This document shows, one piece after another, positions 30,241 to 61,987 of a DNA stretch of 64,000 bases. How positions within the stretch are numbered: position 1 is the stretch's first letter; each line of letters begins with the position of its first letter. A program made the position numbers and the translations under genes. The notes below the pieces were generated by a model, which worked only from the letters and a program-made list of their open reading frames with translations, had not been told where the DNA came from and searched no databases. The stretch is from a virus (Duplodnaviria > Heunggongvirae > Uroviricota > Caudoviricetes), in IMG/VR virus record IMGVR_UViG_3300028025_000093, positions 88,650 through 152,649 of that record. One strand, 5' to 3'.

Positions 30241-30278
30241 AATGGTTGTGAATTAAATACTTGAAAAGGAAATATATT

Positions 30279-31033: not shown

Positions 31034-31089
31034 GCAGTAAGTGTATGGGCATTCTCTGAGTGCCTATACGCATTACTGTTGGAGAAAAT

Positions 31090-33139: not shown

Positions 33140-33790
33140 ATGAAGCGTACAAATATATTCAGTTGCCCTATATGGGAATGGGATAATCTTCCAATAGATA
33201 ATTCCAAACTTGAACAACATGTGTATACTTTAATGGAACGTGATCCAGAGTTTAGAAACCCTGAAGGATATAGTGGACTTATATTAAAGTGGAAGAGTTA
33301 TAACCTAACATCAAAAGACTTTTTGGCTTTTCCTGAAACTGGTAAACTAATCGCTTTAATTAAAGAATTAGTAGTTCCTTGTATCGCTGAATTAAATCCA
33401 CGGGATTCTGCTACTTTTGTTTTACAAGAAGTGTGGTTCAATGTTTACCCACCACTTGCTTCATTGGAAAGTCACCCACACGTAGGTAATGTTTTGTCTG
33501 GAACATACTACATCAAAGCCAAACCAAACTGTGGTGACTTGGCATTTTTAACAGGTGATAATAGCACATACTATAACTTTGCTGCTAAGTACTTTCATAA
33601 CAGAAATGACATAACTGCAATTAAACATCTAGTGAAACCTGTGGAAAATTCTATGATAGTTGCACCCTCGCATTTAATGCATGCTGTAAAAGAGAATCGC
33701 TCAGAAGAGGATAGAATTTCTCTTTCCTTTAATTTTAAAGTTGTTAGTGATAACACATACACACCAAACGACAAGTATTTTAAAATTTAA
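33140..33790 (+). CDS. putative 2OG-Fe(II) oxygenase superfamily protein
   Basis: Candidate metal ligands 'SHPHVG' and 'SHLMH', plus 'RISLSF' (an RxS 2-oxoglutarate-binding motif). Such genes are common in marine T4-like phages. Confidence 0.45.
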   Translation: MKRTNIFSCPIWEWDNLPIDNSKLEQHVYTLMERDPEFRNPEGYSGLILKWKSYNLTSKDFLAFPETGKLIALIKELVVPCIAELNPRDSATFVLQEVWFNVYPPLASLESHPHVGNVLSGTYYIKAKPNCGDLAFLTGDNSTYYNFAAKYFHNRNDITAIKHLVKPVENSMIVAPSHLMHAVKENRSEEDRISLSFNFKVVSDNTYTPNDKYFKI

Positions 33791-43099: not shown

Positions 43100-45588
43100 T
43101 GATTTTTTATTCGCACGTATTCCCATTCGGCAACAAAATGTGTGTCCGTGGGTACGAGAATGGTAAACCCTTTCAACGCAAGATTGACTTTTATCCAACT
43201 CTGTATGTAAACGCAAAAACTCCAAACACTGAATGGAGTACTCTCACAGGACAAGCTGTTGAAGAAATCAAACCTGGAACAGTAAAAGAAACACGAGAGT
43301 TTGTTAAGAACTATGAAGATGTCAGTGGCTTTGACATCTATGGTAACACCAACTACGTTTGTCAATATCTTAGCGACACTTATGAAAGTGATATTCGTTG
43401 GGACATGGAACAGATCAAAGTGTTTACCATCGACATTGAGACGGCAACAGAAAATGGATTCCCAGATATTAAATCTGCCAATGAAGAGATCCTATTAATT
43501 ACCATCAAAGATCTGCAGTCCAAGCGTATTATTACGTTTGGATCACGTGCATTCGTTCATGGTCGCGATGACGTAATCTACATTCACTGTAAAGATGAAC
43601 TTCACTTACTCAAAGAGTTTATGATTTGGTGGCAGCAAAACTATCCAGATGTTTTGACTGGTTGGAATATTAACTTCTTTGACGTGCCGTATTTGATCAA
43701 GCGTGTTTCTCGTGAACTTGGCGAAACGATCGCCAATAAGTTTTCACCATGGGGTTATATCAATGAGCGTAAGATCTTTGTTAAAGGTAACGAAGAAATC
43801 ACATACGATATCCATGGTGTATCTCAGCTAGACTATCTTGACTTGTATAAAAAGTTTACGTATCAAAAGCAAGAATCGTATCGTCTAGATTATATTGCAG
43901 GTGAAGAACTTGGTGATGCCAAGAAAGAAAATCCAGGTGATACCTTCAAAGACTTTTATACCAATCACTGGCAAGAATTTGTTGAGTATAATATTCACGA
44001 CGTAGAGTTGGTTGATAAACTTGAAGACAAGATGCGATTGATTGAGTTATGCCTAACTATGGCATACAACGCAAAGATTAACTATGAAGATGTATTTTCT
44101 CAAGTGCGTATGTGGGATGCCATTATCTACAATCACTTGCGTAAGAGAAAAATTGCGATTCCAACAAAGACTGGTTCAAGTAAAAATGAACAGTTTGAGG
44201 GTGCGTATGTAAAAGATGTTTTGGTTGGTGCTCACAAATGGGTAGCTTCCTTTGACTTGAACTCACTATACCCGCATTTGATTATGCAGTATAATATCTC
44301 GCCAGAAACTCTTACATCAGAAAAGATCAGCGTAACTGTTGATAAATTGCTCAACAAAGAAGTTGATACATCATACGCCAAACGTAGAGATCTGGCTCTA
44401 ACTGCCAATGGTTGGACTTATCGCAGAGACATCAAAGGGTTTATGCCTGAGTTGATGGAAAAGATGTATGCGGATCGTTCAAAGTTTAAAAAGCAGATGT
44501 TGAAGATTGAACAAGAATATCAAAACGACAAAACGCAAAAACACTTGTTAAAAGATATTTCTCGTTTGAATAATCTGCAGATGGCTATGAAGATTGCCCT
44601 AAACTCTGCTTATGGTGCCATGGGTAATCAGTACTTCCGATACTTTGATATTCGTATGGCTGAGGGTATTACTACCAGTGGTCAACTATCAATTCGTTGG
44701 ATGGCGAACAAGTTGAATGCATTCTTGAATAAAACTCTCAAGACTGAAGGTAAAGACTTTGTTATTGCAATTGACACTGACTCAATCTATCTTACACTTG
44801 AGCACTTGGTCGAGAAAGTCTGCGAAGGTAAAGATACTGCGGCAAAGATAAAGTTTATGGACAAGATCTGTGAAGATGTTTTCCAACCATTCATTGATCA
44901 AGGTTATCAAGAACTAGCCGAGTATATGAATGCACATAGTCAAAAGATGATTATGAAGCGTGAGGTTCTGGCTGACAAAGGTATCTGGACTGCCAAGAAA
45001 CGATATATCCTTAACGTGCATAACTCTGAGGGTGTTCAATACGCAAAGCCCAAGCTAAAGGTAATGGGTCTTGAGATGGTTAAGTCAAGTACTCCTGCAG
45101 CAATTCGTGATAAGCTACGAGAATCTATTGATGTAATTCTTAAAGGTAATGAAGCTGACTTGCACGCATACATTGAAACATTCCGTGCTGAGTTTAACCA
45201 AATGCCAGTTGAAGCCATTGCATTCCCTCGTGGTGTTAATGGTTTGCGTCAGTATTCTGGTTCTCCGATCTATTCAAAGGGCACACCGATTCACGTGCGT
45301 GGTTCTTTGCTGTATAATCACTACGTTAAAAAGTTTGGACTAGATAGAAAGTACCAGCTAATTAAAGAAGGTGACAAGATTAGGTTTATCTACGTCAAGA
45401 AACCAAATCCATTTAATGAGGATGTCATTGCATTCCCGCAATCTATTCCTAAAGAGTTTGGACTTGAAGAGTTTATTGATTATGAACTTCAATTTAAAAA
45501 GACTTTCCTTGACGCAATGCAAACTGTAATTGAACCACTTGGTTGGAAAGTTGAACATCAATCATCATTGGAAGACTTCTTTGGATAA
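43099..45588 (+). CDS. family B DNA polymerase gp43 (with its own N-terminal 3'-5' exonuclease domain)
   Basis: Exo I 'FTIDIETAT', pol motif A 'DLNSLYPH' and motif C 'IAIDTDSIY'. 829 aa. Confidence 0.9.
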   Translation: MIFYSHVFPFGNKMCVRGYENGKPFQRKIDFYPTLYVNAKTPNTEWSTLTGQAVEEIKPGTVKETREFVKNYEDVSGFDIYGNTNYVCQYLSDTYESDIRWDMEQIKVFTIDIETATENGFPDIKSANEEILLITIKDLQSKRIITFGSRAFVHGRDDVIYIHCKDELHLLKEFMIWWQQNYPDVLTGWNINFFDVPYLIKRVSRELGETIANKFSPWGYINERKIFVKGNEEITYDIHGVSQLDYLDLYKKFTYQKQESYRLDYIAGEELGDAKKENPGDTFKDFYTNHWQEFVEYNIHDVELVDKLEDKMRLIELCLTMAYNAKINYEDVFSQVRMWDAIIYNHLRKRKIAIPTKTGSSKNEQFEGAYVKDVLVGAHKWVASFDLNSLYPHLIMQYNISPETLTSEKISVTVDKLLNKEVDTSYAKRRDLALTANGWTYRRDIKGFMPELMEKMYADRSKFKKQMLKIEQEYQNDKTQKHLLKDISRLNNLQMAMKIALNSAYGAMGNQYFRYFDIRMAEGITTSGQLSIRWMANKLNAFLNKTLKTEGKDFVIAIDTDSIYLTLEHLVEKVCEGKDTAAKIKFMDKICEDVFQPFIDQGYQELAEYMNAHSQKMIMKREVLADKGIWTAKKRYILNVHNSEGVQYAKPKLKVMGLEMVKSSTPAAIRDKLRESIDVILKGNEADLHAYIETFRAEFNQMPVEAIAFPRGVNGLRQYSGSPIYSKGTPIHVRGSLLYNHYVKKFGLDRKYQLIKEGDKIRFIYVKKPNPFNEDVIAFPQSIPKEFGLEEFIDYELQFKKTFLDAMQTVIEPLGWKVEHQSSLEDFFG

Positions 45589-45628
45589 TATTCGTATCAT
45601 CAAAACAGGAATCAATGTTTCAAAGATT

Positions 45629-46132
45629 ATGAAACAATTGCAAGAGAATCCACAGGATTGGGGTTCTCAGAAAAACATTGAAGGTGTTAAAGACTTAGTC
45701 ACAGATTATGATGCTTTAAAGTTTTTGCAAATGGATGTTGGTGCTTTGCAATTAGTTATGGGTGTGGTTTCCAGCAAAGAAGAATTTGTTGGAGACAGTG
45801 AAATATCCAGACCAACGCCAGCATATGACAGACACACAGAAGTCGTTAGATTCTTAAAACGCAATTTTAAGAAATTTGACAGATGTGGATTTTTATCATT
45901 ACCGATAGGTGGTATTGTTGGTCAGCATATTGATATGGGTAGTTACTATCAGACCAGAGATAGATACCATCTTGCAATTCAAGGCACATACATATACACA
46001 GTTGGTGGTGAATCTGTTACAGTTGAACCTGGAACTCTACTTTGGTTCAACAATAAACTACCTCACGGGACACAAAATATTGGAGATTGCGTTCGCATAA
46101 CATTTGTGTTTGATGTACCTCACAAGAAATAA
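45629..46132 (+). CDS. cupin-fold protein, possibly an Asp/Asn beta-hydroxylase-like 2OG oxygenase
   Basis: 'GQHIDMG' followed by 'LPHGTQNIG' gives an HxD…H pattern. The start is ambiguous: the frame is open from 45530, overlapping the polymerase gene. Confidence 0.35.
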   Translation: MKQLQENPQDWGSQKNIEGVKDLVTDYDALKFLQMDVGALQLVMGVVSSKEEFVGDSEISRPTPAYDRHTEVVRFLKRNFKKFDRCGFLSLPIGGIVGQHIDMGSYYQTRDRYHLAIQGTYIYTVGGESVTVEPGTLLWFNNKLPHGTQNIGDCVRITFVFDVPHKK

Positions 46133-47263: not shown

Positions 47264-47582
47264 ACCTTACGTTGTCGTTGAAAACAAGCAAGGGTTTGAT
47301 GCGATAAAGTTGACCGAAAATCCATTTGAGGGTATAATTTATACTTATGGTAGAGTTTCCTTTGATGAAGATGACGCAACTGGGTACATCAAGCTGAAGT
47401 TTGATTACGAGATTTTAGATTATGCGGATAAGGTAATTACTAATAAACAACCATTTGAAAAATACATTGGTGATATATTACAAGAACTTATTCACGAAGG
47501 TATTGAAAATAACAATTTAACATACGCAGGTGGTATTGATGAGAATAGAACAGGCGATCCTATCGAACCTGATTCACAATGA
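47247..47582 (+). CDS. hypothetical protein
   Basis: ORF between uvsX and the gene 41 homologue. Confidence 0.35.
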   Translation: MMMKNKPYVVVENKQGFDAIKLTENPFEGIIYTYGRVSFDEDDATGYIKLKFDYEILDYADKVITNKQPFEKYIGDILQELIHEGIENNNLTYAGGIDENRTGDPIEPDSQ

Positions 47583-48936
47583 AGAATATTGCCGTAAGGT
47601 AGTTCCTCATTTAAAGAAAGAGTATTTCTCCGATAGAAAAGAAGCAGCAATCGTTATGATTCTGCTTAATTTCTTTGAGCAATACAATAAGCCAGCAAGT
47701 CCTGAAGTTGTTCAGATTGAATTGTCTAATCTTAACGGATTCACGGATAAAGAGATTCCTGAGATGCAGGAATACGCCAAGACTTTACAAGCTGATGCTG
47801 CTACCAATCAAGATTGGTTGATTGAAAATAGTGAGAAGTTTTGTAAAGATCGTGCTGTGTATAATGCCATTCTGGATTCAATTAAGATTATTGAAGGTAG
47901 AGATAAGGTACATACTCAAGATGCCATCCCAACAATTCTTTCTGAAGCACTTGGTGTGTGTTTTGATAATCACGTTGGTCATGATTACCTACAAGATGCG
48001 CAATCTCGATTTGACTTTTATCATAGGGTTGAAGAAAAGGTTGCCTTTGACCTAGAGATGTTTAACAAGATTACCAAAGGTGGTTTGTCAAAGAAAACTC
48101 TAAACATTGCGTTGGCTGGTACTGGTGTTGGTAAGTCGTTGTTTATGTGTCACGTTGCTGCTGGTGTTCTTATGCAAGGTAAGAATGTTCTATACATTAC
48201 TATGGAAATGGCTGAAGAACGTATCGCTGAACGTATTGACGCAAACTTGTTGAACCTTACTATGGATGAGTTAAAGGTAGTTGACAAAGATATCTTTGAC
48301 TCACGTCTAGCAAAGATTGCCAATAAAACCAAAGGTACGTTGATTGTAAAAGAATATCCAACTGCAAGTGCTCACGCTGGTCACTTCCGTGGCTTGCTTG
48401 AAGAACTTAAATTAAAGCGTGAGTTTGCCCCAGATATTATTATGATTGACTATCTTAATATTTGCGCATCTTCTAGAATGAAGCAAGGTGCAAATGTAAA
48501 CTCTTATACATATGTAAAGAGTATTGCTGAAGAGTTACGTGGTCTTGCCGTTGAGTATAATGTACCCATTCTTAGTGCAACTCAAACTACTCGTTCTGGA
48601 TTTACTAATTCAGATCCAGGACTTGAAGATACGTCAGAGTCGTTTGGTTTGCCAGCCACAGCTGACTTGATGTTTGCTCTAGTGAGTAATGAAGAACTTG
48701 AGCAGTTGAATCAGATTATTGTAAAGCAGTTAAAGAATCGTTACAATGATCCAGGTTTTTATAAACGATTTGTTATTGGTATTGATCGTAGTAAAATGAA
48801 ACTGTATGACGTTGAGATCTCTGCACAAAGCGGATTATCTGATGCAGGTACTAAAGATGATAAGCCTATGTTCGATAAAAGTGAATTTGGTAAACGTATA
48901 CATAATGAAGATAACTTTAGTGGGTTTAAGTTTTAA
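47530..48936 (+). CDS. replicative DnaB-like helicase gp41
   Basis: N-terminal 'ILSNLIHNEEYCRKVVPHLKKEYF' matches T4 gp41 'ILSHLIFDQAYFSKVWPYMDSEYF'. Walker A 'GTGVGKS'. The start could instead be the ATG at 47539. Confidence 0.85.
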   Translation: MVLMRIEQAILSNLIHNEEYCRKVVPHLKKEYFSDRKEAAIVMILLNFFEQYNKPASPEVVQIELSNLNGFTDKEIPEMQEYAKTLQADAATNQDWLIENSEKFCKDRAVYNAILDSIKIIEGRDKVHTQDAIPTILSEALGVCFDNHVGHDYLQDAQSRFDFYHRVEEKVAFDLEMFNKITKGGLSKKTLNIALAGTGVGKSLFMCHVAAGVLMQGKNVLYITMEMAEERIAERIDANLLNLTMDELKVVDKDIFDSRLAKIANKTKGTLIVKEYPTASAHAGHFRGLLEELKLKREFAPDIIMIDYLNICASSRMKQGANVNSYTYVKSIAEELRGLAVEYNVPILSATQTTRSGFTNSDPGLEDTSESFGLPATADLMFALVSNEELEQLNQIIVKQLKNRYNDPGFYKRFVIGIDRSKMKLYDVEISAQSGLSDAGTKDDKPMFDKSEFGKRIHNEDNFSGFKF

Positions 48937-48945
48937 GGAGCCGAA

Positions 48946-50253
48946 ATGGTAAAAATTGTTGTAGCAGAAAACAAGTATGATGCCAAACATATGTTGGGAC
49001 AATTTCCAACTGAAGCAGATTACGATCTTTTAATTGAAGAAGATATGGACGTTTATATGCCTGAAGTTCCAGGACATCCTGAACTGACATATACCGAAGA
49101 ACGTATTGTTCTGAAGTTTCGCAAGAACTACTTTACAAAAGAACAACAAGAGCAAGCATACGTTGGTTTGAGAGAAGCTGCGGTTGAATCTCAGAATCGT
49201 GGTATTGCTGCTGGTCCACGTCAAGGTTCATTGGGTAATCGCCAGTGGGTAACAGATTACGAATACGATATGCTTGACGTATTCCTAAAGCCAACTGAAA
49301 ACTTGTTTGGTGACGATCCTGTTGAGGTTGTTCGTAACAAACATAAGAACATTACTGCCAGTGCTTCTAATCGTGCACGTGTTTGGTCAGTAGATGGTGT
49401 CAAGAAAGAGAACTTTGTATTTGACACTTGGGTTGATACTATTCGTAAGATGACACCTGATGCTGCCAAACAAGAAGCAGAACGTGTAGCTGAAGATCTT
49501 ATCTGTGCCACAACTTACGCAAACTCAGTTCACTCTGGCATTGCTGGTTGGTTCGATCGTTATCCACGCATTCCGTATGGTCGTGCCACAAGTTATACTC
49601 GTGATAATTTTGACAAGTTTAAGATGGCGTTTCCTTTCTTACAAACTCTATCGCAAGGTTTCAAAGAATTGTTACCTTGGAGATACGGCAATCAAATGGC
49701 TGCAGCCAATAAACTAGATCCAAACTATTTGGTTCCAGGTACACCATTTACCACAATTACCGTAAACAAAACTTTCCGTACTGCTTGCCATTATGATGCT
49801 GGTGATTTAACCACAGGTTTGTCTAATCTACTAACCTTGTCAAATACTGGTAACTATTCTGGTTGTTATCTGGTTGCACCTGAGTATCGTGTGGCAGTTA
49901 ATGTACGTCCAGGAGATTTGTTGTTGATTAACAATCACGAAGTTATGCACGGCAATACTGAAATTAAAGTGCACGATGAAATCTCAGAACGCATTAGCTT
50001 GGTTTGCTACTTCCGTGAAAAGATGCTTGAGCTAGGTTCCAAAGAATACGAAGATACCAGATATCAATTCGTTGAAGATCGTCGCAAGAATAAAGAACAT
50101 CCTGAACACAGAGCATTGTGGAATGGTGTATCTCCAGGTATGTGGGAGTCTGACGAGTGGTACGATTACCTACGTCATAAACTTGGTGAAGACCAACTGG
50201 TGAAGTATCACCCAGAATCACAAAAGGCTAACTCACTAGAAAGTTTCTTTTAA
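48946..50253 (+). CDS. 2OG-Fe(II) dioxygenase (DSBH fold); candidate DNA-base (thymine) hydroxylase
   Basis: 'ACHYDAGD' (His-282, Asp-284), a distal 'NHEVMHGNTE' (His-331/335) and 'ERISLVCY' (RxS). It is the first gene of a cluster with a kinase, a transferase and an amidoligase. Confidence 0.5.
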   Translation: MVKIVVAENKYDAKHMLGQFPTEADYDLLIEEDMDVYMPEVPGHPELTYTEERIVLKFRKNYFTKEQQEQAYVGLREAAVESQNRGIAAGPRQGSLGNRQWVTDYEYDMLDVFLKPTENLFGDDPVEVVRNKHKNITASASNRARVWSVDGVKKENFVFDTWVDTIRKMTPDAAKQEAERVAEDLICATTYANSVHSGIAGWFDRYPRIPYGRATSYTRDNFDKFKMAFPFLQTLSQGFKELLPWRYGNQMAAANKLDPNYLVPGTPFTTITVNKTFRTACHYDAGDLTTGLSNLLTLSNTGNYSGCYLVAPEYRVAVNVRPGDLLLINNHEVMHGNTEIKVHDEISERISLVCYFREKMLELGSKEYEDTRYQFVEDRRKNKEHPEHRALWNGVSPGMWESDEWYDYLRHKLGEDQLVKYHPESQKANSLESFF

Positions 50254-50930
50254 TGTGCGCAGTCATTGGAGCCATCCTGCAGAAACCAACTCTGCAGGAT
50301 TTTACTATGTTGCATCGTGTATTCCTAGAGTCCAAGATTCGAGGTATGCACGCCACTGGAATATCCTATGTCAAGAATGACCGAGTTGTTACTGAGAAGC
50401 ACCCTGTTCCTGCCAATGAGTTTCCTTTTAATTTTGCAGAGTATGTTAATGAAGATGGGAATCTCTACCTTATTGGTCACTGTCGTTACAGCACTAGCGA
50501 TCTTGAGTTTAATCAGCCAATTGGTAATGATAAACACTCAATAGTTCACAATGGAGTTATCACTCAAGAACTACCAGAACGCTGGAAAGAATTATATAAT
50601 TATGAGTGCACGACCAAGAATGATAGTGAGTTAGTCTTACACTCTGATTCGCCACTTGAAGAGTTTCCTGATATGTCTATGGGTGTTTGTGAATTAACCA
50701 GTGACAAGAAACTACTTGCTTATCGTAATGGCAAACGTCCATTATACTTGACTAGTATTTCAAATGGGTGTATAATTACTTCTACTGCTGATATTATTAA
50801 ACGTGCAGAAGTGGAAGGGTTTCCTATTAACCTTTTATCAAATCATTACACTACATTTGATAGTGACCTAACTATGATTGTTGAAAAGGTTAATATTGAT
50901 GCTGTTGATTACCAACTAATAGGTGACTGA
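50253..50930 (+). CDS. class-II (Ntn) glutamine amidotransferase domain protein
   Basis: N-terminal catalytic 'MCAVIG', plus 'IRGMHATG', 'GHCRYSTSD' and 'VHNGVITQ', which match the PurF/GlmS/AsnB GATase-II signatures. Confidence 0.75.
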   Translation: MCAVIGAILQKPTLQDFTMLHRVFLESKIRGMHATGISYVKNDRVVTEKHPVPANEFPFNFAEYVNEDGNLYLIGHCRYSTSDLEFNQPIGNDKHSIVHNGVITQELPERWKELYNYECTTKNDSELVLHSDSPLEEFPDMSMGVCELTSDKKLLAYRNGKRPLYLTSISNGCIITSTADIIKRAEVEGFPINLLSNHYTTFDSDLTMIVEKVNIDAVDYQLIGD

Positions 50931-51805
50931 TGAATTATCCAAAAGAAAAATTTACATACGGTATGGAAATAGAGTGGGGTGATGTTCCTCGCTCTTTTTC
51001 AATTCCAGAACATCTTGGTACTTGGGAATACTCCGAGCGAGATATTATTAACCTACGAGATCCATACAAGAACGTATGTGCAGATCCGTTGGGTGAAGAT
51101 CCGCCATTTGGTGGAGAGATTAATACCAAGCCAACTCGTACTTGGGCTGGTCAAGTAGAACGATACTTTGAACTACAGAAACTGTTTGAAGATGCTGGTC
51201 ATCCACCAACAGTAGGTGTTACTGCACATACACACATACACTGTCGCATTCCTGGATTGCGTGATGATATCGATGCACTAAAACGATTGACCAAATACAT
51301 CAAAGAAAACCAAGCAACAACAGTTGATCGTGTTTATGGTTTCTATGACCACAATCAAATGAAAGGTGCCAAAGGTGCCAAGATGTATCTAAAGTTTGAT
51401 GGTGGTCGTACAATGCCAGATTATATGAGCGATAATATTATCAATCTAGCCACTGACTTCAACTCTTTCATTAAGATGCACGCTGCAGGTAAAGATGGTG
51501 TTTCAATGGGTCGCCCATTCCGATATGCCATTAATATGTACGCACTCAAACACATTGATACTGTGGAGTTTCGTTTATTCCGTGGTACACTGGATAAAGT
51601 AGAATTGGAATCTTGCTTCCGTTTCGTTGAAGACTTCCTTGATGCTGCGCTAAATGATGGACCAAGTGTTGACGATCTGATCAATACCAATGGTTATAAG
51701 TTTCCACCGATGCAGTGGGATCTTGCTCAATTCATTGGATGGGAAAAGACAAAGCACCCAGAAGATCGTGGTGAGAAAGTGAGAACTCTTGTTGAGGTTG
51801 AGTAA
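50930..51805 (+). CDS. glutamine-synthetase-like amidoligase family protein
   Basis: 'FTYGMEIEW' N-terminal region and overall size typical of phage and bacterial amidoligases. Assigned from my recollection of family signatures. Confidence 0.5.
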   Translation: MNYPKEKFTYGMEIEWGDVPRSFSIPEHLGTWEYSERDIINLRDPYKNVCADPLGEDPPFGGEINTKPTRTWAGQVERYFELQKLFEDAGHPPTVGVTAHTHIHCRIPGLRDDIDALKRLTKYIKENQATTVDRVYGFYDHNQMKGAKGAKMYLKFDGGRTMPDYMSDNIINLATDFNSFIKMHAAGKDGVSMGRPFRYAINMYALKHIDTVEFRLFRGTLDKVELESCFRFVEDFLDAALNDGPSVDDLINTNGYKFPPMQWDLAQFIGWEKTKHPEDRGEKVRTLVEVE

Positions 51806-51887
51806 ATGTTCAAGATGTGATTTTGTAAATAGTATATCTACCGATAAGGGAGATAACTTTGCAAAGACATTTATTGCCAAAGCAGAT

Positions 51888-52340
51888 ATGCAAGACCAAT
51901 GGGAGTATTGCATAGGTGCTTGGGATGGTAGCGAATTAACAGCTGCCATTATAACTACCATATCCAAGAATAAACCCCACGTGGCTAACCTACAACTCTT
52001 GCATACCTTTGTAAAACACCGAGGAAAGGGAGCTGCCAGGATCCTCTGCGAGGACTCTTTAAAGCGTGCTAGAGCGTCTGGAGCGACTTACTTTAGGGTA
52101 TCCTCAGAGAAGTCTGCCGTAGGCTTCTACGAGCGTCTAGGGTTCCGATTCTGGGGTTCCCAAAAGAGTGGTTGCCAGCTATCCATCTTTAGGATAGGGG
52201 GAGATACCTTCCTACAGGGCGACTACGACCTTTCTGACACCACCATCAATAAAGCGGTCAACCGAAAGGGTAAGGGAGGTTGTACGACCCTCTACGACCT
52301 TGCAAAGAGCCAAAATGGGGTCAAAATAGACGATTTTTGA
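51888..52340 (+). CDS. GNAT-family N-acetyltransferase with anomalous GC-rich composition
   Basis: 'FVKHRGKGAARIL' acetyl-CoA-binding motif followed by 'GFYERLGF'. About 50% GC with rare AGG/CGA/GGG codons, against about 37% GC for the rest of the window. The ORF track uses TTG at 51789; the first ATG is at 51888. Confidence 0.55.
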   Translation: MQDQWEYCIGAWDGSELTAAIITTISKNKPHVANLQLLHTFVKHRGKGAARILCEDSLKRARASGATYFRVSSEKSAVGFYERLGFRFWGSQKSGCQLSIFRIGGDTFLQGDYDLSDTTINKAVNRKGKGGCTTLYDLAKSQNGVKIDDF

Positions 52341-52354
52341 GTCAAATTTAGCTT

Positions 52355-52382
52355 TACTTTAATTGCAAAATAAGGTATAATA
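52355..52382 (+). promoter_or_regulatory. sigma70-like promoter (TTTACT-N16-TATAAT) driving the HNH gene
   Basis: 'AGCTTTACTTTAATTgcaaaataaggTATAAT' is a member of the conserved promoter family. Confidence 0.5.
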
Positions 52383-52408
52383 AAGGTTGGATAATTGAGG
52401 AATTTATT

Positions 52409-52945
52409 ATGAGAAATTTAAACCTTGAAGAACTAATAGAATTTAATTTTAATTCTGACTTGGTGAACCAAGAAGAATCAAGACGTGAGTACATATCTGA
52501 AAAAAATCAAGAAAATCATAAGACTTGGGGTGATACTAAAGAGCGTTGGATAAAGCGACATCTTTATAAAGGGACACAAAGTAATGCTAGAGAAAAGAAA
52601 GTAGCCAATACTTTATCTCCAGTAGCCTTAAGTAAAATGTGGGATTTACAAAAAGGTAAATGTGCTATTAGTGGAGTGGAGTTAGTTTGGGGTGAAACTG
52701 ATAACATCCGAAGAGCATCAGTTGATCAAATATATCCATCAGGTGGCTATACATTAGAAAATACATGGCTAGTTTGTTCAGGAATAAATTTTTTGAAAAA
52801 TAAATTTTCACTGACAGATCTTCTTGAGATATACCCACAAGCAATAAAATCTTCTTTATTTAACGAGGTATATGAAGCTACTTTAAATGATAAAGTACCT
52901 ACACACAATAGTCCTATTATAAACGACCTTCAATTACTCACTTAA
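52409..52945 (+). CDS. putative HNH-family homing endonuclease
   Basis: 'GKCAISGVEL…SVDQIYPSGGYTLENTWLVCSGINFLKNK' resembles the HNH_3-type core. AT-rich, with its own promoter, inserted inside a functional gene cluster. Confidence 0.4.
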   Translation: MRNLNLEELIEFNFNSDLVNQEESRREYISEKNQENHKTWGDTKERWIKRHLYKGTQSNAREKKVANTLSPVALSKMWDLQKGKCAISGVELVWGETDNIRRASVDQIYPSGGYTLENTWLVCSGINFLKNKFSLTDLLEIYPQAIKSSLFNEVYEATLNDKVPTHNSPIINDLQLLT

Positions 52946-53964
52946 TGGACTATAGACTATCACAAAATCGTAGAGAAGCATTCATACGCTGGTATGCGTG
53001 GTCGTTGAAGTATGACGACTGCGACCCAGCAGTATGGGCGACTAACTATATAAACGATCGTTACGAGCATAATGACGAGCAGAAACTTTGGTTGTGCTGG
53101 CTATACGGTAATACATACTATCTTCCAACTGCTTGGGTATTGATGAACGAGTTTCCCGACTATGAACTGGCAACTGTTGATCGTATGACTCAGTGGAATA
53201 CTACCAACTACAAGCGACTGCGTTATCAAACTGACACAAAGTGGAACAAGGGACATTTGCCAACCATGTTCGAATCTTATCAAAAGTATATTGGCAATCA
53301 AACTCAACGAGAAAAGATAGAGTCATTATATGGAAACAATGAGAAGGCAAACTTTGATAACTTGTGGGAGAGCGTTAAGTCTAGCTTGCATAAGTTTGGT
53401 CGTTACAGTACTTGGTTTTATCTTCAGCATCTTAAGCATACCGCTGGTGTTCGGATCGATCCTACTTCTCTCATGCTGGACGATTATGATGGCTCTCGCT
53501 CTCATCGTAATGGATTACTTTATGCCCTCGGACAAGAAGACAGTGTGGATAGAAAACTCACTGCAATGGAGTATGCAAATCTTGAGTCACAAGCCCAAGA
53601 GATTCTTGCAGAGACGAAAGCAAGATTTCCAGAACTCATATCGTCAATAGATTATTTCACTATGGAAACGTGTCTGTGTTCTTATAAGAAAATCTTTAGA
53701 GAACACCACGGAAGATACCTTGGGTATTACCTAGATCGTCAAGCTGAAGAGATTATCAAAGTTGAAGGCGATGGATGGTATGGAATTGATTGGGATGTGC
53801 TTTGGCAATCCCGAGAAGAAACTATTGATTTACGTCTAGATCACAAACGTGGTATAGACAAAGAAAAGTTTAAGTATTTTATCAATACAGGTAAACTTGA
53901 TAATCTCGAGTGGATGTTTGATGATGAACAGCGACAACTTATTGGACTAGAGGAATTTTTATGA
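52945..53964 (+). CDS. hypothetical protein; candidate aGPT-pyrophosphorylase-like transferase of the base-modification cluster
   Basis: Assigned from gene context only: it is translationally coupled (ATGA) to the downstream small P-loop kinase and sits in a cluster with a dioxygenase, a GATase and an amidoligase. I recognise no sequence motif with confidence. Confidence 0.3.
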   Translation: MDYRLSQNRREAFIRWYAWSLKYDDCDPAVWATNYINDRYEHNDEQKLWLCWLYGNTYYLPTAWVLMNEFPDYELATVDRMTQWNTTNYKRLRYQTDTKWNKGHLPTMFESYQKYIGNQTQREKIESLYGNNEKANFDNLWESVKSSLHKFGRYSTWFYLQHLKHTAGVRIDPTSLMLDDYDGSRSHRNGLLYALGQEDSVDRKLTAMEYANLESQAQEILAETKARFPELISSIDYFTMETCLCSYKKIFREHHGRYLGYYLDRQAEEIIKVEGDGWYGIDWDVLWQSREETIDLRLDHKRGIDKEKFKYFINTGKLDNLEWMFDDEQRQLIGLEEFL

Positions 53965-54500
53965 GAAAATTGATTGCAGTTGGTGGTTCTCCAGGAACAG
54001 GTAAAACTACCTTATTCCGTAAGTTTATGGAAGGTAAAACTTGGGAGCGAGTTGAGCCCAAGAAAATGTTACCTGCACTCTACTGTGCAGAATTGGATTT
54101 GTATATCCTAGGTAAGTACGAAGATGGCGAAACATTCGCTGGCACAGATCGTTTAAGTATGGCTGTTCAACCAGTGGCTCAGGAATTCGTCAAGGAAACT
54201 ACTTCAAACATCTTATTTGAAGGCGACCGAATCTTTAACCAGTCTTTCCTAGAGTTTGCCATGGGATTGCCCGATACTGATCTACAAGTGATTTTCCTAA
54301 AGGTTCCCAAGGAAATGCTTGAGCAAAGGTATAAGGATCGTGGATCCGACCAATCGGAGATATTCCTAAAGGGTCGCAATACTAAATATAATAACCTATT
54401 GTCTAATTTTGAGTTGATGCCATATATTACTGAGTTTGTGAATACTAACTTAGAGGAGCAGGGGAAAGTTCTAACCTTTTTAGAAGGTCAATTAGGATAA
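53961..54500 (+). CDS. small P-loop kinase; candidate 5-hydroxymethyluracil DNA kinase (5-HMUDK-like)
   Basis: Walker A 'GGSPGTGKTT', about 180 aa. The assignment as a DNA-base kinase is from context. Confidence 0.45.
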   Translation: MRKLIAVGGSPGTGKTTLFRKFMEGKTWERVEPKKMLPALYCAELDLYILGKYEDGETFAGTDRLSMAVQPVAQEFVKETTSNILFEGDRIFNQSFLEFAMGLPDTDLQVIFLKVPKEMLEQRYKDRGSDQSEIFLKGRNTKYNNLLSNFELMPYITEFVNTNLEEQGKVLTFLEGQLG

Positions 54501-54502
54501 GG

Positions 54503-55228
54503 ATGGAACTTTCTAGGGATATGAATTACCTAGAAACCGCAGACTTCAATTGGATGGAAATGCTCAATTTCTATGAGCAGCCATTTAGAGCTAAACTCAT
54601 TCCATCAAAAGTGTGGCGAGATCTCGACAAGTATAAAAATGATAGCGTAGGTCTAGCCAACTATACTAAAAAGTGGCGTACCAAAATAGAGTTTAGAAAA
54701 GCACCATCTAAGGCAAAGATCTGGAAAACCTACACATCAATTGGTGGTGAATATTCCCCAGATGAACGTCAGTGTACCCTACAAATCTACACGCTAGAAT
54801 TTGATAAATTCCCTTTCACTAAAGTATCTTGGGATAGATTTAAGTATCGCTTTATTCAAACTCTGATGCACGAGTTGATTCACTTTATGCAGTACGATCG
54901 TCGTGGTGATGAGTGGAGCAATTACGTACTACCACATAAGAAAGTTGGTCAAGCCAAGAAAGACGCTGAGCGTAAATACCTTTCTGAGTTTGATGAGATA
55001 CAAGCATACGCTCATTGTGTTTATCTGGACTTTAAAATGTTCCGTCCAAGATTAGAAGTAGAAACACTAATGAACCGAGCAGGACAATATACAGATTCAA
55101 AGACTCTACATTACTTTCTAAAGACATTCAACTACGACTACAAGAATAACGCTGCAATTCCAAAGATAATGCAGCAGATTATTAAGTGGGACAACAAGTA
55201 TCAACGATACGTCAATAAGCCTAAATAG
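54503..55228 (+). CDS. HExxH motif protein (putative zincin-like metallohydrolase)
   Basis: 'TLMHELIHFMQYD' followed by 'SEFDEIQAY'. Confidence 0.35.
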   Translation: MELSRDMNYLETADFNWMEMLNFYEQPFRAKLIPSKVWRDLDKYKNDSVGLANYTKKWRTKIEFRKAPSKAKIWKTYTSIGGEYSPDERQCTLQIYTLEFDKFPFTKVSWDRFKYRFIQTLMHELIHFMQYDRRGDEWSNYVLPHKKVGQAKKDAERKYLSEFDEIQAYAHCVYLDFKMFRPRLEVETLMNRAGQYTDSKTLHYFLKTFNYDYKNNAAIPKIMQQIIKWDNKYQRYVNKPK

Positions 55229-56655: not shown

Positions 56656-56684
56656 TTGACTTTAATTGCAAGATAGGGTATAAT
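56656..56684 (+). promoter_or_regulatory. consensus sigma70 promoter (TTGACT-N17-TATAAT)
   Basis: 'CGCTTGACTTTAATTgcaagatagggTATAAT' is the best match to the consensus within the promoter family. Confidence 0.65.
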
Positions 56685-56690
56685 AAAGGT

Positions 56691-58540: not shown

Positions 58541-61500
58541 ATGAAGAAATACAGACAATTAATAAAAGAACTTCCTACAAAGAAAGTAGTATTTGCCTTT
58601 GGTCGATTCAATCCACCAACGACAGGTCACGAATTGCTTGTAAAGACAGTCAAAAAGCTGGCTAGCACTGGTAGTGCTGACCACGCCATCTATGCTTCAA
58701 AAACTCAAGATGCTAAAAAGAATCCACTCTCAGTGGATAAAAAAGTTCAATACCTTGGCAAAATGTTCCCAAGCACAAAGTTTGTGGCTGCCAACCAAAA
58801 CGTAAGAACTTACATCGAAGCAGTTAAAGAACTCAATAAAAAATACAAAAACCTTGTTATGGTCGCAGGTAGTGATCGTGTTCAAGCGTATCAAGAATTA
58901 CTAAACAAATACAACGGCAAAGAATTTCACTTTGATACTATTGAAGTAGTATCTGCAGGTGAGCGTGATCCAGACGCAGATGATGCTTCTGGTATGTCTG
59001 GAACAAAGATGCGTAGTCTAGCTGCAAAAGGTGACTACGCTACATTCAAGAAAGGTCTTCCTTCTACTCTACGTGACATTGACGGTAAGCGTTTGATGAA
59101 TGACGTGCGTCTAGGTATGGGTATTGAAGCATTGAAAGAACAAGTTCGTTTTGACATTGATGCTCTACGTGACGAATTCTTTAAGGGTAAGATCTACACA
59201 GTTGGTCAATTTGTTGAGTCAGACAATCAACGTTACGAAATCATTGATCGTGGTAGTAACTATCTTGTACTAGTTAATAGCACAGGAGAAACTTGTAAGA
59301 AGTGGATTCAAGATGTTACATTATCTGAAGACCAATTACAAGAAGATGTTACAGGTGGAACTGCACCAGAACAAATTACATTCAAAGGTTACACAACCAA
59401 AAACTTTGCTCGCACTGCTGATGCAGCAAAAGCATTCCAAGATACAATCTCTCGTGCTTCAGAAAAAGATCCAGTGGCAGTTTTGAATGCTCTAAAGGCA
59501 ACTGATACTTATATGGGTATCAATGATCGTCACATTGCTGGCGAAGAATTAACTGATGCTGAGATTACTCAGTGGAAAGAAGCCAGAGTTAAAGCACAAG
59601 AATCATTGGCTCGTGTTGGAGAATTTATGCATCATATGGATTACTTCCATACGCATGAACACGAACTAGAAGGTCTATTAACAAATTTCAAAGATAGTGG
59701 TAAAGGCGAATTCATGGAAGCGTTATCAGATAAAACATTACGTCCAACAGACAAGATTAAAGTGGCACGTATTATTGCTACTATGTTGGGAGTTGATAAA
59801 GTTGAAGCAACTTCAAATCCAGAGTTGTTGGTTAATACTGCATTGCGTAGAATTAAAACCAAGACGCTAAATCCTGAAGCACTTAACATTGTAAATAAGA
59901 TGTTGGCTTTGGCTAATGAAATGGGTATTGATTACGATACAAACCTTATCCCACAGAAATTACAAGTTACAGAAGATGCTGTGGTTAAGTTTGATCCAAA
60001 GAAAACAAATAATATCGCTCAAGGTATTATGACGTTTGACGATTATCAAAAGTTAAAGAACATGACCAATAAAGCTGGTCATAGTCTTGGGCATACCGAT
60101 AATGACAACTTGCGTAAGATGAAAGTCAAGCACATGACTGAAGCCAGTGCATTGGAAAGATTCCGTGCCGCAGCTGCTGAGCGTGAAAAGAAACACGATG
60201 AGATTGAGCGTAAGCGTAAAGAAGCTGCTGCCCAAGGCAAAGAAAACATGTCTGGTGCCATTGATCGTTTAGAAAAGCATCTAAACAAAGAAGGTCTAGA
60301 TGAAATTGCAATGTACGATTTGCCAAACAATGATCGTATGGATAAAAAAGGTATTGCGGTAAATCCATTCCGCAAAGAAAAAACTGCTTCAGATTTGGCT
60401 AGAATTGCTAAAGCAAAGGCAGCAGAAAAGAATCAAAAGGGCATATACAAACCACAATCTGCAGGGCAAAGAAAAGCTACTGTCAACGACTTAATGAAAT
60501 TGGTTAAGCACATTGGGGAAAGTGCCCATGTAGAATTTCGCATCGACAATCGTGATAAAGTAAGTGGTGACCATAAGTCTACGTTTGCAGATCACGAAGC
60601 AAAAGTATCAGATACAACTGATAAAGCAACTTACGTAAAAGTACCATCTCATAAAGCAGATTCATTTAAATCTGCCATGAAATCTAAGCATGGGGTTCGT
60701 GTAGAGTTGGCTGAATCACGTGGACTTGCCGATAAGTATTACAGCATGGCTCAGGATCGTAAAGAAACTGCGCATGAAAACAAAGGCAATCACGAAGTAT
60801 ATCATACACATATGGCAGATCATCATGACGCCATGAGTCGTTACCATGAAGAACTTGGTCAGCATTCTCTTGCTCAAGCCCATGCTGATAAAGCAGAAAT
60901 TCACCATGAAAAGTCTATGGAGAAACCTAAAAAAGGTTTAGCTGAATCTGCTTGGGGTAAGGATAAAATGACTAACCTACGTCAAGCCCACGATCGTCAT
61001 ATGGAAAAGGCACTGGCTGCAAATAAAGCTGGTGATGATGAAGCAGTTAAAACTCACCAAAGAAAAATGCAGACGATCCAGACTCAGATGCAGAAACTTA
61101 AACAGAACGAAGAAGTAGATAATATTCAAGAAGATGAAATAGATACTACGGATTATAAGTTATCCCCAAGTGGTCGTAAAGTTCGTGCTCATCGTATCAA
61201 AGTTGGTGACAATAAAAAAGATGACGATGTGGAAGATATGAAAGAAGCTACCATGTCTGATGCAGATATGAAAGAGCGTGAGCGTATCGTTAAGGGTATG
61301 AAAAAGAATATCGCTGGTTTTAAAGCACGTTATGGTAAAGATGCTGAATCAGTAATGTACGCCACTGCCACTAAAGCAGCAATGAAAGAAGAAACAGAGC
61401 AGTTCGAAGAAGTTGATATGTCTCATATTGAAGACCATAAAGATCAGCAAGAACAAAACATAGAAGACCAGTTAATGGCTGAGTTAGATTTAACTGATGA

Positions 61501-61987
61501 ACAAATCGATCACATTGTTGATTCCGCTCAAGAAGATGACTTTATCGAACAGTATGATGATGAAGAATTGGCAATTGTTGATGAAGAAAGTGGCGAAGAA
61601 ATTGAAGAAGAACAAGTTAATGAACAAACATTAATGGAAGTTCTATCCAAAGTAGAACGTATCCGTGCTCGTTTACGTTTTGCTAAAACCAAAGGTAAGC
61701 GTGAGCGCAAAGCACAAATTGCCCTAAAGACACGTTCAACAAATGCCGTTGCAAATAAACGTGCACGTCGTCTGGCAATTAAGTTAATGAAGAATCGTTT
61801 ACTGCGTGGTCGTGATGCAAACAAAATCTCTATCGGTGAGAAAGAACGCATTGAACGCATAATCCAAAAACGTAAAGTAATCGTTGGACGTATCGCCATG
61901 AAGTTGGTACCACGCATCCGTCAGATTGAGAAGTCACGTTTATCACATACTAAATTTACAAAGGGTGCTCCAAATGTTGCGTTTTAA
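58541..61987 (+). CDS. 1148-aa protein with an N-terminal (H/T)xGH nucleotidyltransferase (NMNAT/cytidylyltransferase-like) domain fused to a very long charged, His-rich low-complexity region
   Basis: 'FGRFNPPTTGHELLV' (HxGH-type motif) and 'SGMSGTKMR' (ISST-type motif) within the first 170 aa. The remaining 950 aa are K/E/D/A/M-rich, with His-rich stretches such as 'HTHMADHHDAMSRYHEELGQH'. Confidence 0.6.
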   Translation: MKKYRQLIKELPTKKVVFAFGRFNPPTTGHELLVKTVKKLASTGSADHAIYASKTQDAKKNPLSVDKKVQYLGKMFPSTKFVAANQNVRTYIEAVKELNKKYKNLVMVAGSDRVQAYQELLNKYNGKEFHFDTIEVVSAGERDPDADDASGMSGTKMRSLAAKGDYATFKKGLPSTLRDIDGKRLMNDVRLGMGIEALKEQVRFDIDALRDEFFKGKIYTVGQFVESDNQRYEIIDRGSNYLVLVNSTGETCKKWIQDVTLSEDQLQEDVTGGTAPEQITFKGYTTKNFARTADAAKAFQDTISRASEKDPVAVLNALKATDTYMGINDRHIAGEELTDAEITQWKEARVKAQESLARVGEFMHHMDYFHTHEHELEGLLTNFKDSGKGEFMEALSDKTLRPTDKIKVARIIATMLGVDKVEATSNPELLVNTALRRIKTKTLNPEALNIVNKMLALANEMGIDYDTNLIPQKLQVTEDAVVKFDPKKTNNIAQGIMTFDDYQKLKNMTNKAGHSLGHTDNDNLRKMKVKHMTEASALERFRAAAAEREKKHDEIERKRKEAAAQGKENMSGAIDRLEKHLNKEGLDEIAMYDLPNNDRMDKKGIAVNPFRKEKTASDLARIAKAKAAEKNQKGIYKPQSAGQRKATVNDLMKLVKHIGESAHVEFRIDNRDKVSGDHKSTFADHEAKVSDTTDKATYVKVPSHKADSFKSAMKSKHGVRVELAESRGLADKYYSMAQDRKETAHENKGNHEVYHTHMADHHDAMSRYHEELGQHSLAQAHADKAEIHHEKSMEKPKKGLAESAWGKDKMTNLRQAHDRHMEKALAANKAGDDEAVKTHQRKMQTIQTQMQKLKQNEEVDNIQEDEIDTTDYKLSPSGRKVRAHRIKVGDNKKDDDVEDMKEATMSDADMKERERIVKGMKKNIAGFKARYGKDAESVMYATATKAAMKEETEQFEEVDMSHIEDHKDQQEQNIEDQLMAELDLTDEQIDHIVDSAQEDDFIEQYDDEELAIVDEESGEEIEEEQVNEQTLMEVLSKVERIRARLRFAKTKGKRERKAQIALKTRSTNAVANKRARRLAIKLMKNRLLRGRDANKISIGEKERIERIIQKRKVIVGRIAMKLVPRIRQIEKSRLSHTKFTKGAPNVAF

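Follow-up and report, generated by a model that had tools for sequence, protein, structure and literature searches.

The stretch of DNA considered here is a 64-kb window of the IMG/VR virus record IMGVR_UViG_3300028025_000093 (positions 88,650 to 152,649 of the record; positions below are those of the window), covering under half of a T4-like phage genome of about 160 kb. At 48946-55228 it holds eight consecutive + strand open reading frames (ORFs), directly 3′ of a gp41-type helicase gene (47530-48936). To judge from the protein families encoded, this cluster is likely to specify a post-replicative thymidine hypermodification pathway, in which a dioxygenase of the TET/JBP family would supply 5-hydroxymethyluracil (5hmU) instead of a dUMP hydroxymethylase. 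The dioxygenase gene is followed by genes for a class-II glutamine amidotransferase (GATase), a glutamine-synthetase (GS)-like amidoligase, a GNAT-family acetyltransferase, an HNH-like protein, an amino acid:DNA transferase (AADT), a small P-loop kinase and a protein with an HExxH motif (Table 1).

An earlier note on this DNA, made from the letters alone, had recognised the logic of thymidine hypermodification in the interval. This part of the interpretation stands, as the family matches it predicted were obtained and neither a hydroxymethylase nor a C5-cytosine methyltransferase (C5-MTase) was found in the 64 kb, whereas its claim of novelty and its count of the genes had to be given up, and the HExxH protein cannot be taken for an adduct-trimming enzyme. 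Searches of the 64 kb for C5-MTase, ThyA-like and ParB sequences were negative, and together with the predicted profile matches this gives the functional reading good computational support. The central idea is correct and already published.

The dioxygenase and the source of 5hmU

The first gene of the cluster encodes a protein matching the Pfam family Tet_JBP (PF12851) with E 7e-26 and 90.8 bits (gathering cutoff 34.9), which is the profile match that had been predicted for it, and over its full length the phage family phrog_24024 (E 1e-156). Its iron triad, H282-x-D284 and H335, and the R349 that binds 2-oxoglutarate (2OG), within R349-x-S351, are invariant in 38 homologues, and a profile built from these homologues aligns the iron and 2OG residues with the catalytic residues of human TET2. 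The TET2 positions concerned are H1382/D1384, H1881 and R1896. Some 75 residues lie C-terminal to the R349-x-S351 strand and include the invariant W392, W400, W405 and H422. The fold is of the TET type, the best structural matches of the AlphaFold2 (AF2) model being TET2, NgTET1 and CcTet; this model came from a shallow alignment with a moderate pLDDT of 63 and was used for the fold class only, an N-terminal stretch of about 190 aa lying outside the assigned part.

In regard to other possible sources of 5hmU, Pfam searches of the + strand ORFs between 18 and 64 kb of the window gave no C5-MTase, no enzyme of the thymidylate synthase family and no ParB. Likewise, tblastn with the ThyA-like protein of phage M6 against the whole 64-kb window was negative, as were scans of the whole window for C5-methyltransferase (C5-MT) motifs I and IV; the part from 1 to 18 kb was covered by tblastn and motif checks for ThyA, ParB and C5-MT only. 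A C5-MTase was also not found beside the TET gene in those relatives whose cassette ORFs were scanned. The earlier proposal that a dioxygenase takes the place of a thymidylate-synthase-like hydroxymethylase agrees with the finding that no ThyA-like gene was detected in the 64 kb. From the family membership, the intact catalytic residues, the failure to find a C5-MTase or ThyA-like gene and the published activity of related phage enzymes, the dioxygenase is predicted to oxidise thymine to 5hmU in DNA.

The transferase and the kinase

The ORF that had been listed as a 339-aa unknown protein, coupled by ATGA to a 179-aa P-loop kinase, is present and so is the kinase, and the unknown protein can now be named an AADT (former aGPT-Pplase2). 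It matches Pfam ADDT (PF18724) with E 1.1e-22 and 81.3 bits (cutoff 26.2) and, over 294 aa, shares 28% identity (E 5e-28) with ViI gp247, a validated serine:DNA transferase (PMC8989533). The validated M6 gp51 falls in the same Pfam family, although pairwise comparison with it gave no significant similarity (E 0.47). A tblastn search with the AADT returned 379 phage records, mostly from ViI-like phages.

The kinase matches Ploopntkinase3 (PF18751; E 3.2e-8, 33.8 bits, cutoff 27) and phrog_800 (E 2.6e-16), has a Walker A motif GSPGTGKT at residues 9-16, and is 40% identical to a protein of the Caulobacter phage Cr30 encoded near the TET and AADT genes of that phage. From this context we infer that it is a 5-hydroxymethyl-2′-deoxyuridine (5-hmdU) DNA kinase (5-HMUDK) outside the validated families. 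For comparison, the validated kinase M6 gp54 matches HMUDK_HMUD1 (PF18748) with E 8e-18. A small-molecule nucleotide kinase was considered as well and rejected, as generic kinase families all scored below their cutoffs and Ploopntkinase3 above. Assignment of the AADT and the kinase to unrelated families, named in advance as an outcome that would argue against hypermodification, was thus not what the searches gave, and the same holds for the other outcome of this kind that can be read from sequence, a dioxygenase resembling only protein hydroxylases.

As a side observation, M6 gp54 (L084, 16686-17249) is labelled 'terminase small subunit' in RefSeq, and phrog_800 likewise, which looks like a propagated mis-annotation.

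The GATase, the amidoligase and the acetyltransferase

The GATase gave the match expected of it, with GATase_6 (E 1.2e-8, 35.5 bits, cutoff 27) and GATase_7 (E 4e-5). Its N-terminus reads MCAVIG, with Cys2 directly after the initiator Met, and Cys2, R78, N100-G101 and D124 are invariant in 12 homologues, aligning with Cys1, Arg73, Asn98-Gly99 and Asp123 of E. coli GlmS. It is a bare class-II glutaminase domain in which the GlmS-type residues binding free glutamine are intact. The overlapping amidoligase gene, together with a GATase_6-Amidoligase_2 fusion in the relative P0333, provides candidates for its acceptor, yet 24 of the 34 loci with a GATase have no amidoligase.

The amidoligase itself stays below the threshold of Amidoligase_2 (PF12224; E 0.063, 13.6 bits, cutoff 22, over the C-terminal 35 residues only), and the Amidoligase_2 match anticipated for it was obtained through relatives only. 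When 1.8 billion representative proteins were searched exhaustively with HMMER, 298 relatives came up at E<=1e-3; of the 89 that were aligned, 50 match Amidoligase_2 (best E 3.7e-13), and no alternative family emerged. Residues G11, E13, E15, E63, R198, E213 and R215 are invariant, and H102 and H104 nearly so. An acidic/His/Arg core pattern is expected of glutamine-synthetase-like carboxylate-amine ligases. Profile searches of the protein sequences in the PDB with the amidoligase and GATase alignments gave nothing usable. The acetyltransferase is unambiguous, being matched by Acetyltransf_10 (E 1.4e-11, 44.9 bits, cutoff 23.6) and Acetyltransf_1 (E 2.2e-8, 34.8 bits, cutoff 20.7), and its gene adjoins that of the amidoligase in all 10 loci with a cassette of the window's type (type A, see below).

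Relatives of the amidoligase occur in several fusions, comprising amidoligase, GNAT and HMUDK_HMUD1 kinase (P0244), GNAT, amidoligase and HMUD2 kinase (P0262), amidoligase and HMUD2 kinase (P0260, P0287), GATase_6 and amidoligase (P0333), TET-associated glycosyltransferase (TAGT) and amidoligase (P0376), and amidoligase, low-molecular-weight (LMW) phosphatase and TAGT (P0359). Because the family is fused in this way to 5-hmdU DNA kinases, GNAT, GATase and TAGT domains, the amidoligase, the GATase and the GNAT are placed in the chemistry of hmU-containing DNA.

Related loci and exchangeable cassettes

Relatives of the dioxygenase were found in 318 IMG/VR contigs, many of them apparently from freshwater metagenomes, and 80 loci with 68-97% identity were examined. 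The order polB, cupin, uvsX, gp41, TET is common to these loci, and TET is the invariant first gene of the cassette (80/80). Dozens of independent metagenomic contigs repeat the gene order of the cluster, with proteins 55-98% identical. Such recurrence takes the arrangement beyond chance, and the cluster is real, intact and conserved. The cupin gene between polB and uvsX is missing in L039, L051, L079 and L081 and kept in most loci reaching that position.

Cassettes were compared in the 45 loci that span the whole interval from the TET to the HExxH gene. The most frequent arrangement (24 loci) consists of a GATase, a different GNAT, an AADT, a conserved 130-aa ORF and the kinase, to which three loci add a 242-aa ORF and one a radical-SAM enzyme. 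Ten loci have the type A cassette of the window, with GATase, amidoligase, GNAT, AADT and kinase, three of them with a ParB_N protein in the slot of the HNH-like ORF. In another five a TAGT stands alone (PF20691, E 5e-19), and the remaining six hold a 335-aa protein and a small HAD-like protein. Wherever one of GATase, AADT and kinase is present, so are the other two (34 of 34 loci), and all three are gone from the other 11. The TET and HExxH genes therefore flank a swappable cassette, which can be of the amino-acid type or of the glycosyltransferase type.

Examples of the alternative cassettes are the TAGT of L041 (2596-3396) and, in L018 (11320-12773), the 335-aa protein with a 149-aa HAD-like protein, whose N-terminal part contains DIDGVLA and which has no Pfam match. 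The radical-SAM enzyme, of 503 aa, is an addition to the amino-acid-type locus L054 (6881-8392). The ORF of about 130 aa between AADT and kinase, also without a Pfam match, occurs in L031 (14320-14715) and 34 other loci and is missing from the window. Furthermore, a 121-aa ORF lies directly 3′ of the dioxygenase gene in L079 (11679-12044), L081 and L083; its 40%-identical counterpart in the window is an ORF at 30279-30677, within the region 30261-30680 and far from the cluster.

Dioxygenases of this family are also found in more distant T4-like phages that are cultured or fully sequenced. Near the dioxygenase gene, Cr30 (L002) encodes an AADT (E 1e-52), the kinase with 40% identity, a protein with a weak TAGT-like match and an inositol-1-phosphate synthase, while a TAGT is encoded in the Stenotrophomonas phage DLP_6 (L001) and a UDP-galactopyranose mutase in phage C48C1 (L003). 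The DNA of these three phages may be hypermodified. Their dioxygenase family, of 430 aa, is mis-annotated as 'SNF2 DNA repair protein'. Between its dioxygenase and AADT genes, Cr30 also has a diphosphohydrolase domain (L002, 11196-11723) homologous to a protein with a dATP/dGTP diphosphohydrolase N-terminal domain (PF18909, E 2e-34) encoded in the window at 31060-31431, 18 kb upstream of the cluster.

Organization of the cluster and its flanking genes

Six + strand genes had been described in the interval, most of them joined by overlapping stop and start codons. All six are present at the positions given for them; the total is eight, as the GNAT and the HNH-like ORF had been overlooked. The coupling is confirmed by measurement of the junctions, which consist of overlaps of 1-17 nt or gaps of 2 nt, with the sole exception of a 68-nt spacer 5′ of the HNH-like ORF. 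One-nucleotide overlaps join the TET and GATase, the GATase and amidoligase, and the HNH-like (o178) and AADT genes; the AADT stop and the kinase start share an ATGA, and 2 nt separate the kinase and HExxH genes. A ribosome-binding site, AGGAG, stands 7 nt 5′ of the TET start codon. The motifs that had been pointed out, namely HxD…H…RxS in the dioxygenase, Cys2 in the GATase and H123-E-x-x-H127 in the HExxH protein, are real and invariant in homologues.

Table 1. Features of the cluster, with positions in the 64-kb window
Feature	Position	Strand	Basis of assignment
TET/JBP-family (5mYOX) Fe(II)/2OG dioxygenase, 435 aa	48946..50253	+	Tet_JBP match
Stand-alone class-II (Ntn) glutamine amidotransferase (GATase) domain, 225 aa	50253..50930	+	GATase_6
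Divergent glutamine-synthetase-like amidoligase (Amidoligase_2 family), 291 aa	50930..51805	+	Through relatives
GNAT-family N-acetyltransferase, 183 aa	51789..52340	+	Acetyltransf_10, Acetyltransf_1
Promoter-like 29-bp motif TTTAATTGCAAAATAAGGTATAATAAAGG	52358..52386	+	Repeat copy; overlap with sigma-70-like match
Endonuclease-VII/HNH-like ORF, 178 aa	52409..52945	+	PHROG match
Amino acid:DNA transferase (AADT, formerly aGPT-Pplase clade 2), 339 aa	52945..53964	+	Pfam ADDT
Small P-loop kinase, 179 aa, Ploopntkinase3 clade, predicted 5-hmdU DNA kinase	53961..54500	+	PF18751
HExxH protein, 241 aa, constant 3′ flank of the variable modification cassette	54503..55228	+	Motif

The cluster sits within a T4-like replication and recombination module with polB, UvsX, gp41, clamp, clamp loader, RegA, UvsY, UvsW, gp46/47-like and ligase genes, and its polymerase shares about 55% identity with cyanomyovirus polymerases. 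A megablast search of 50,697 phage genomes found no match to the cluster DNA in deposited phages. Outside the cluster, the replication module also contains a 2OG-FeII_Oxy_5 gene (33140-33790, E 4e-17), and an Asp/Arg-hydroxylase/cupin gene lies between polB and uvsX (45530-46132). At 58541-61987 follows a 1148-aa, highly charged protein with a weak N-terminal cytidylyltransferase-like match (E 0.0016), which is kept downstream of the cluster in relatives.

The 29-bp motif upstream of the HNH-like ORF overlaps a sigma-70-like match at 52353-52381. It has a second copy, with 2 mismatches, at 56661-56689, upstream of a DUF6267 gene, where 0 matches are expected by chance, and it is kept at the equivalent slot of L005, the closest relative. 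It is probably a phage promoter dividing the cluster into two transcription units.

The HNH-like ORF that follows the motif resembles phrog_3322 'endonuclease' (E 9e-14) and phrog_1035 'endonuclease VII' (E 1.3e-13) and has no Pfam match. None of the 80 related loci has it, not even those with 93% DNA identity, and its GC content is 0.32, compared with 0.40 for the cluster. Its slot holds a ParB_N protein in L022 and L034-37 and, in L005, a Cys-rich ORF, about 100 aa long and unrelated to it; the position between the GNAT and AADT genes is a gene insertion hotspot. A part in the pathway was considered for this ORF and rejected on account of its lower GC and its absence from all relatives, and it is probably a mobile insertion rather than a pathway enzyme.

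In the HExxH protein, not only H123, E124 and H127 but also E165 and H171, on a later helix, are invariant. Its AF2 model is confident (pLDDT 86.8), and it matched neither a peptidase family nor a solved zincin fold; no homologue was found in the 50,697 phage genomes. The gene is present with every cassette type, including the glycosyltransferase type that lacks AADT, kinase and GATase, which counts against a role specific to amino-acid adducts. We therefore do not credit the protein with the trimming of such adducts, given its place beside glycosyltransferase-type cassettes and the lack of a match to any peptidase family or solved fold. It is a constant neighbour of the dioxygenase and probably stands outside the modification chemistry.

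Proposed pathway and alternative readings

In the pathway that we propose, the TET/JBP enzyme (435 aa) would hydroxylate the 5-methyl group of thymine in phage DNA, giving 5hmU. The P-loop kinase would then phosphorylate the hydroxymethyl group to 5-phosphoryloxymethyl-dU (5-PmdU), a step suggested by its family and its translational coupling to the AADT. The AADT, in turn, would displace the phosphate with a nucleophile, most likely a free amino acid, or alternatively glutamine-derived ammonia. Its closest validated relative, the serine:DNA transferase of ViI, leaves a free amine and a free carboxylate. In a fourth step, the class-II GATase and the GS-like amidoligase could work as an ATP/glutamine-dependent, amide-forming pair that amidates the carboxylate or ligates an acid to the amine, and the GNAT could N-acetylate the free amine in the manner of PaMx11 gp48. 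The outcome would be a thymine derivative, bulky and of reduced charge, that shields the DNA from host nucleases. The first three steps, as predicted, are well supported by homology to experimentally characterised families and by published chemistry (PMC8989533, PMC13229309). The tailoring roles of GATase, amidoligase and GNAT in the fourth step are what we infer from several features. The GATase has an intact glutamine site and is fused or adjacent to an amidoligase, like class-II amidotransferases, so that glutamine- and ATP-dependent amide formation on the adduct would be the simplest reading. Should the AADT, like its relative in ViI, transfer serine by way of the hydroxyl, the carboxylate would be left free for the amidoligase and GATase, and the amine for the GNAT.

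Several observations weigh against this pathway. In length the dioxygenase exceeds the characterised enzymes, which have 290-300 aa, by about 140 aa. The kinase has no match at E<=0.1 to HMUDK_HMUD1 (PF18748) or HMUD2 (PF18747), the families holding the validated 5-HMUDKs, and its pairwise likeness to M6 gp54 and ViI gp243 is restricted to the P-loop. Furthermore, the T-dioxygenases linked to GATase, kinase and AADT genes required a ParB partner (O'Toole et al. 2026, PMC13229309), and ParB was not found in the window, either with Pfam ParB_N between 18 and 64 kb or by tblastn with the ParB proteins of three relatives over the whole window (E<0.5). Pairs of GATase and Amidoligase_2 genes also occur in LUZ24/tf-like Pseudomonas phages without TET, AADT or kinase, and the function of such pairs is for that reason not necessarily tied to DNA. 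Finally, as the window is less than half of a genome of about 160 kb, the absence of hydroxymethylase and C5-MTase genes is local only, and one or the other could lie elsewhere in the genome.

In regard to the ParB partner, a ParB N-terminal domain (PF02195, E 5e-8) is present in a 431-aa protein encoded between GNAT and AADT in L022 (9127-10422), and tblastn revealed homologues of it in L024 and L034-L037, which makes six relatives with ParB in all. Its distribution in the lineage is patchy, and the identity of the dioxygenases is about 72% with or without it. The dioxygenase of the window may be ParB-independent, or its partner may be encoded elsewhere.

It is also conceivable that no amino acid is involved. 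Since the GATase is without an amidoligase in 24 of the 34 loci and yet always accompanied by an AADT, glutamine-derived ammonia could serve as the nucleophile of the AADT. By analogy, GATase, AADT and kinase would then form a split PurF-like amidotransferase acting on DNA, in which ammonia displaces the phosphate of 5-phosphoryloxymethyl-dU to give 5-aminomethyl-dU with no amino-acid intermediate; we regard this as possible but fairly unlikely. If it were so, the GNAT alone, in the 24 loci, would produce 5-acetylaminomethyl-dU by a route other than that of PaMx11, and in the window the amine would be joined to a carboxylic or amino acid by the amidoligase and capped by the GNAT, amounting to a thymidine hypermodification not yet described.

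A further alternative confines the DNA-modifying core to dioxygenase, kinase and AADT and takes GATase, amidoligase and GNAT for a separate module, acting on a small molecule, a nucleotide or a protein and merely sharing the variable island. In cultured phages, relatives of the GATase do have Amidoligase_2, COOH-NH2 ligase, ATP-grasp and AIG2/BtrG genes as neighbours while TET, AADT and kinase are missing, 24 of the 34 relatives have the GATase without the amidoligase, and amidoligases and GATases are not known to act on DNA, their functions being 'not yet known' (Lee et al. 2022, PMC8989533). On the other hand, the fusions of amidoligase relatives to 5-hmdU DNA kinase domains, GNAT, GATase and TAGT, the presence of the GATase with AADT and kinase in 34 of 34 loci and its loss along with both in the other 11, and the translational coupling of these genes to the dioxygenase make such a separation unlikely. 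Very unlikely, in our estimate, is that the dioxygenase acts on 5-methylcytosine (5mC), which the host or a methyltransferase gene beyond the window would provide, with kinase and AADT building a hypermodified cytosine. Phage TET clades A and B do oxidise 5mC, and phosphorylation of 5-hydroxymethylcytosine (5hmC) by P-loop kinases has been raised as a possibility (Burke et al. 2021, PMC8256090); some phage T-dioxygenases oxidise 5mC too, according to O'Toole et al. (2026, PMC13229309), and the DNA examined is 64 kb of the genome. Nevertheless, no C5-MTase domain or motif was found in the window, nor beside TET in the relatives with scanned cassettes, whereas an adjacent C5-MT is characteristic of phage 5mC-dioxygenases and occurs in only 6% of the mined 5mYOX pathways (PMC13229309), and the validated AADTs and 5-HMUDKs all act on 5hmU (Lee et al. 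2022, PMC8989533).

If, as in SP10, ViI and M6, a dUMP hydroxymethylase lying beyond the window supplied 5hmU for incorporation ahead of replication, the TET/JBP enzyme would be left for further oxidation to 5-formyluracil (5fU) or 5-carboxyuracil (5caU), or for regulation. Less than half of a T4-like genome is in view, iterative oxidation by phage enzymes is reported by O'Toole et al. (2026, PMC13229309), and the C5 carboxylate of 5caU is a conceivable substrate of an amidoligase. Still, no ThyA-like sequence was found in the window, the cassette invariably begins with TET (80 of 80 loci), TET_JBP contigs were found to lack the hydroxymethylase (Lee et al. 2022, PMC8989533), and kinase and AADT require an alcohol, not an acid, so that this course of events appears scarcely probable. 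We therefore retain the post-replicative pathway fed by the TET/JBP dioxygenase as the likely function of the cluster.

Significance

Hypermodified thymidines guard phage DNA against restriction and CRISPR nucleases, and the pathways that make them are a source of DNA-modifying tool enzymes. The product of the cluster is very probably a base not yet chemically identified, and the TET-fed route with GATase, amidoligase and GNAT tailoring has been flagged in the literature as an uncharacterised branch. The lineage itself represents a natural experiment, with one dioxygenase and at least four interchangeable downstream cassettes. As Cr30 is cultured and carries TET, AADT and kinase, the chemistry is directly testable. 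Although no concept is overturned, the cluster offers a defined target for a new hypermodified thymidine and for the first DNA-directed GATase/amidoligase chemistry, with Cr30 and the sister cassettes as tractable ways in.

Comparison with published systems

Clusters of this kind are on record, and the characterization of the dioxygenase-fed route as unusual and possibly undescribed does not hold, as TET-fed clusters with genes for a P-loop kinase and an aGPT-Pplase or AADT appear in three publications (PMC8989533, PMC8256090, PMC13229309). Lee et al. (2022, PMC8989533) validated the kinase, AADT and acetyltransferase steps, with all validated AADTs and 5-HMUDKs acting on 5hmU, and described metagenomic contigs in which TET_JBP replaces the dUMP hydroxymethylase beside genes for 5-HMUDK, aGPT-Pplase2, amidoligase and glutaminotransferase; the functions they call 'not yet known' are those of the 'amidoligase and glutaminotransferase domains'. 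Contigs with TET, P-loop kinase and aG/PT-PPlase were listed by Burke et al. (2021, PMC8256090). Furthermore, phage 5mYOX enzymes were shown biochemically to be post-replicative T-dioxygenases, one subclass being 'consistently linked with' GATases, P-loop kinases and AADTs (O'Toole et al. 2026, PMC13229309).

The closest likeness is to sequences 22-25 in Fig. 2 of Lee et al. (2022, PMC8989533) and to the Clade C1 neighbourhoods of O'Toole et al. (PMC13229309), which share with the window a TET/JBP enzyme in place of the hydroxymethylase, an adjoining P-loop kinase and aGPT-Pplase2/AADT, accompanying GATase and amidoligase genes, no adjacent C5-MTase and an origin in metagenomic phage contigs of the IMG/VR type. 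The window differs from them in that no ParB was found in it (ParB being present in six relatives), in its dioxygenase of 435 aa compared with about 290-300 aa, in its setting in a T4-like replication module directly after the gp41 helicase, and in its Ploopntkinase3 kinase, a type probably missed by the tblastn screen of Lee et al., which used the M6, ViI and PhiW-14 kinases.

Among the pathways with known products, that of ViI, leading to 5-NeOmdU, employs a dUMP hydroxymethylase, the 5-HMUDK gp67/gp243, the serine:DNA transferase gp247 and the pyridoxal phosphate (PLP) decarboxylase gp226. The window shares with it the AADT, 28% identical to gp247, and the logic of kinase followed by transferase. 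In contrast to ViI, its 5hmU would be made by a dioxygenase on DNA instead of being drawn from the nucleotide pool, a PLP decarboxylase is lacking, tailoring would be by GATase, amidoligase and GNAT, and the kinase is similar to gp243 in the P-loop only. The PaMx11 pathway to 5-AcNmdU comprises the 5-HMUDK gp49, the glycine:DNA transferase gp46, the FAD lyase gp47 and the GNAT acetyltransferase gp48. A GNAT beside AADT and kinase is common to both, and gp48 provides a precedent for N-acetylation of an amine borne by DNA; unlike PaMx11, the window has no FAD enzyme, it contains a GATase and an amidoligase, and its AADT is not detectably similar to the glycine-transferase type of M6 and PaMx11 (E 0.47 against M6 gp51).

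In the base J pathway, where kinetoplastid JBP1/2 is followed by a glucosyltransferase, and in phage TET and TAGT clusters, oxidation of thymine in situ is the priming step, as predicted for the window. The downstream genes of the window are those of kinase, AADT and amidoligase and not of glycosylation, while sister loci of its own lineage hold a TAGT in place of the amino-acid cassette, in line with the logic of base J and of TET and TAGT clusters. The modules of LUZ24/tf-like Pseudomonas phages, on the other hand, resemble the window in having a class-II GATase-like protein beside Amidoligase_2 in the region of the phage replication genes, and differ from it in their ATP-grasp, COOH-NH2 ligase and AIG2/BtrG genes, in the lack of TET, AADT and kinase, and in a GATase of 531 aa with an extra C-terminal part. 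These modules reportedly correspond to a comparative-genomics prediction made by Iyer and colleagues in 2009.

The window is thus a further case of a published kind, with its own particulars in the longer dioxygenase, the clade-3 kinase, the fact that no ParB was found, the cassette with amidoligase and GNAT, and the lineage-specific HExxH neighbour. What is new here is the swappable cassette seen across 45 loci, the fusions of the amidoligase family to hmU-DNA kinases, GNAT, GATase and TAGT, and the clade-3 kinase outside the validated families.

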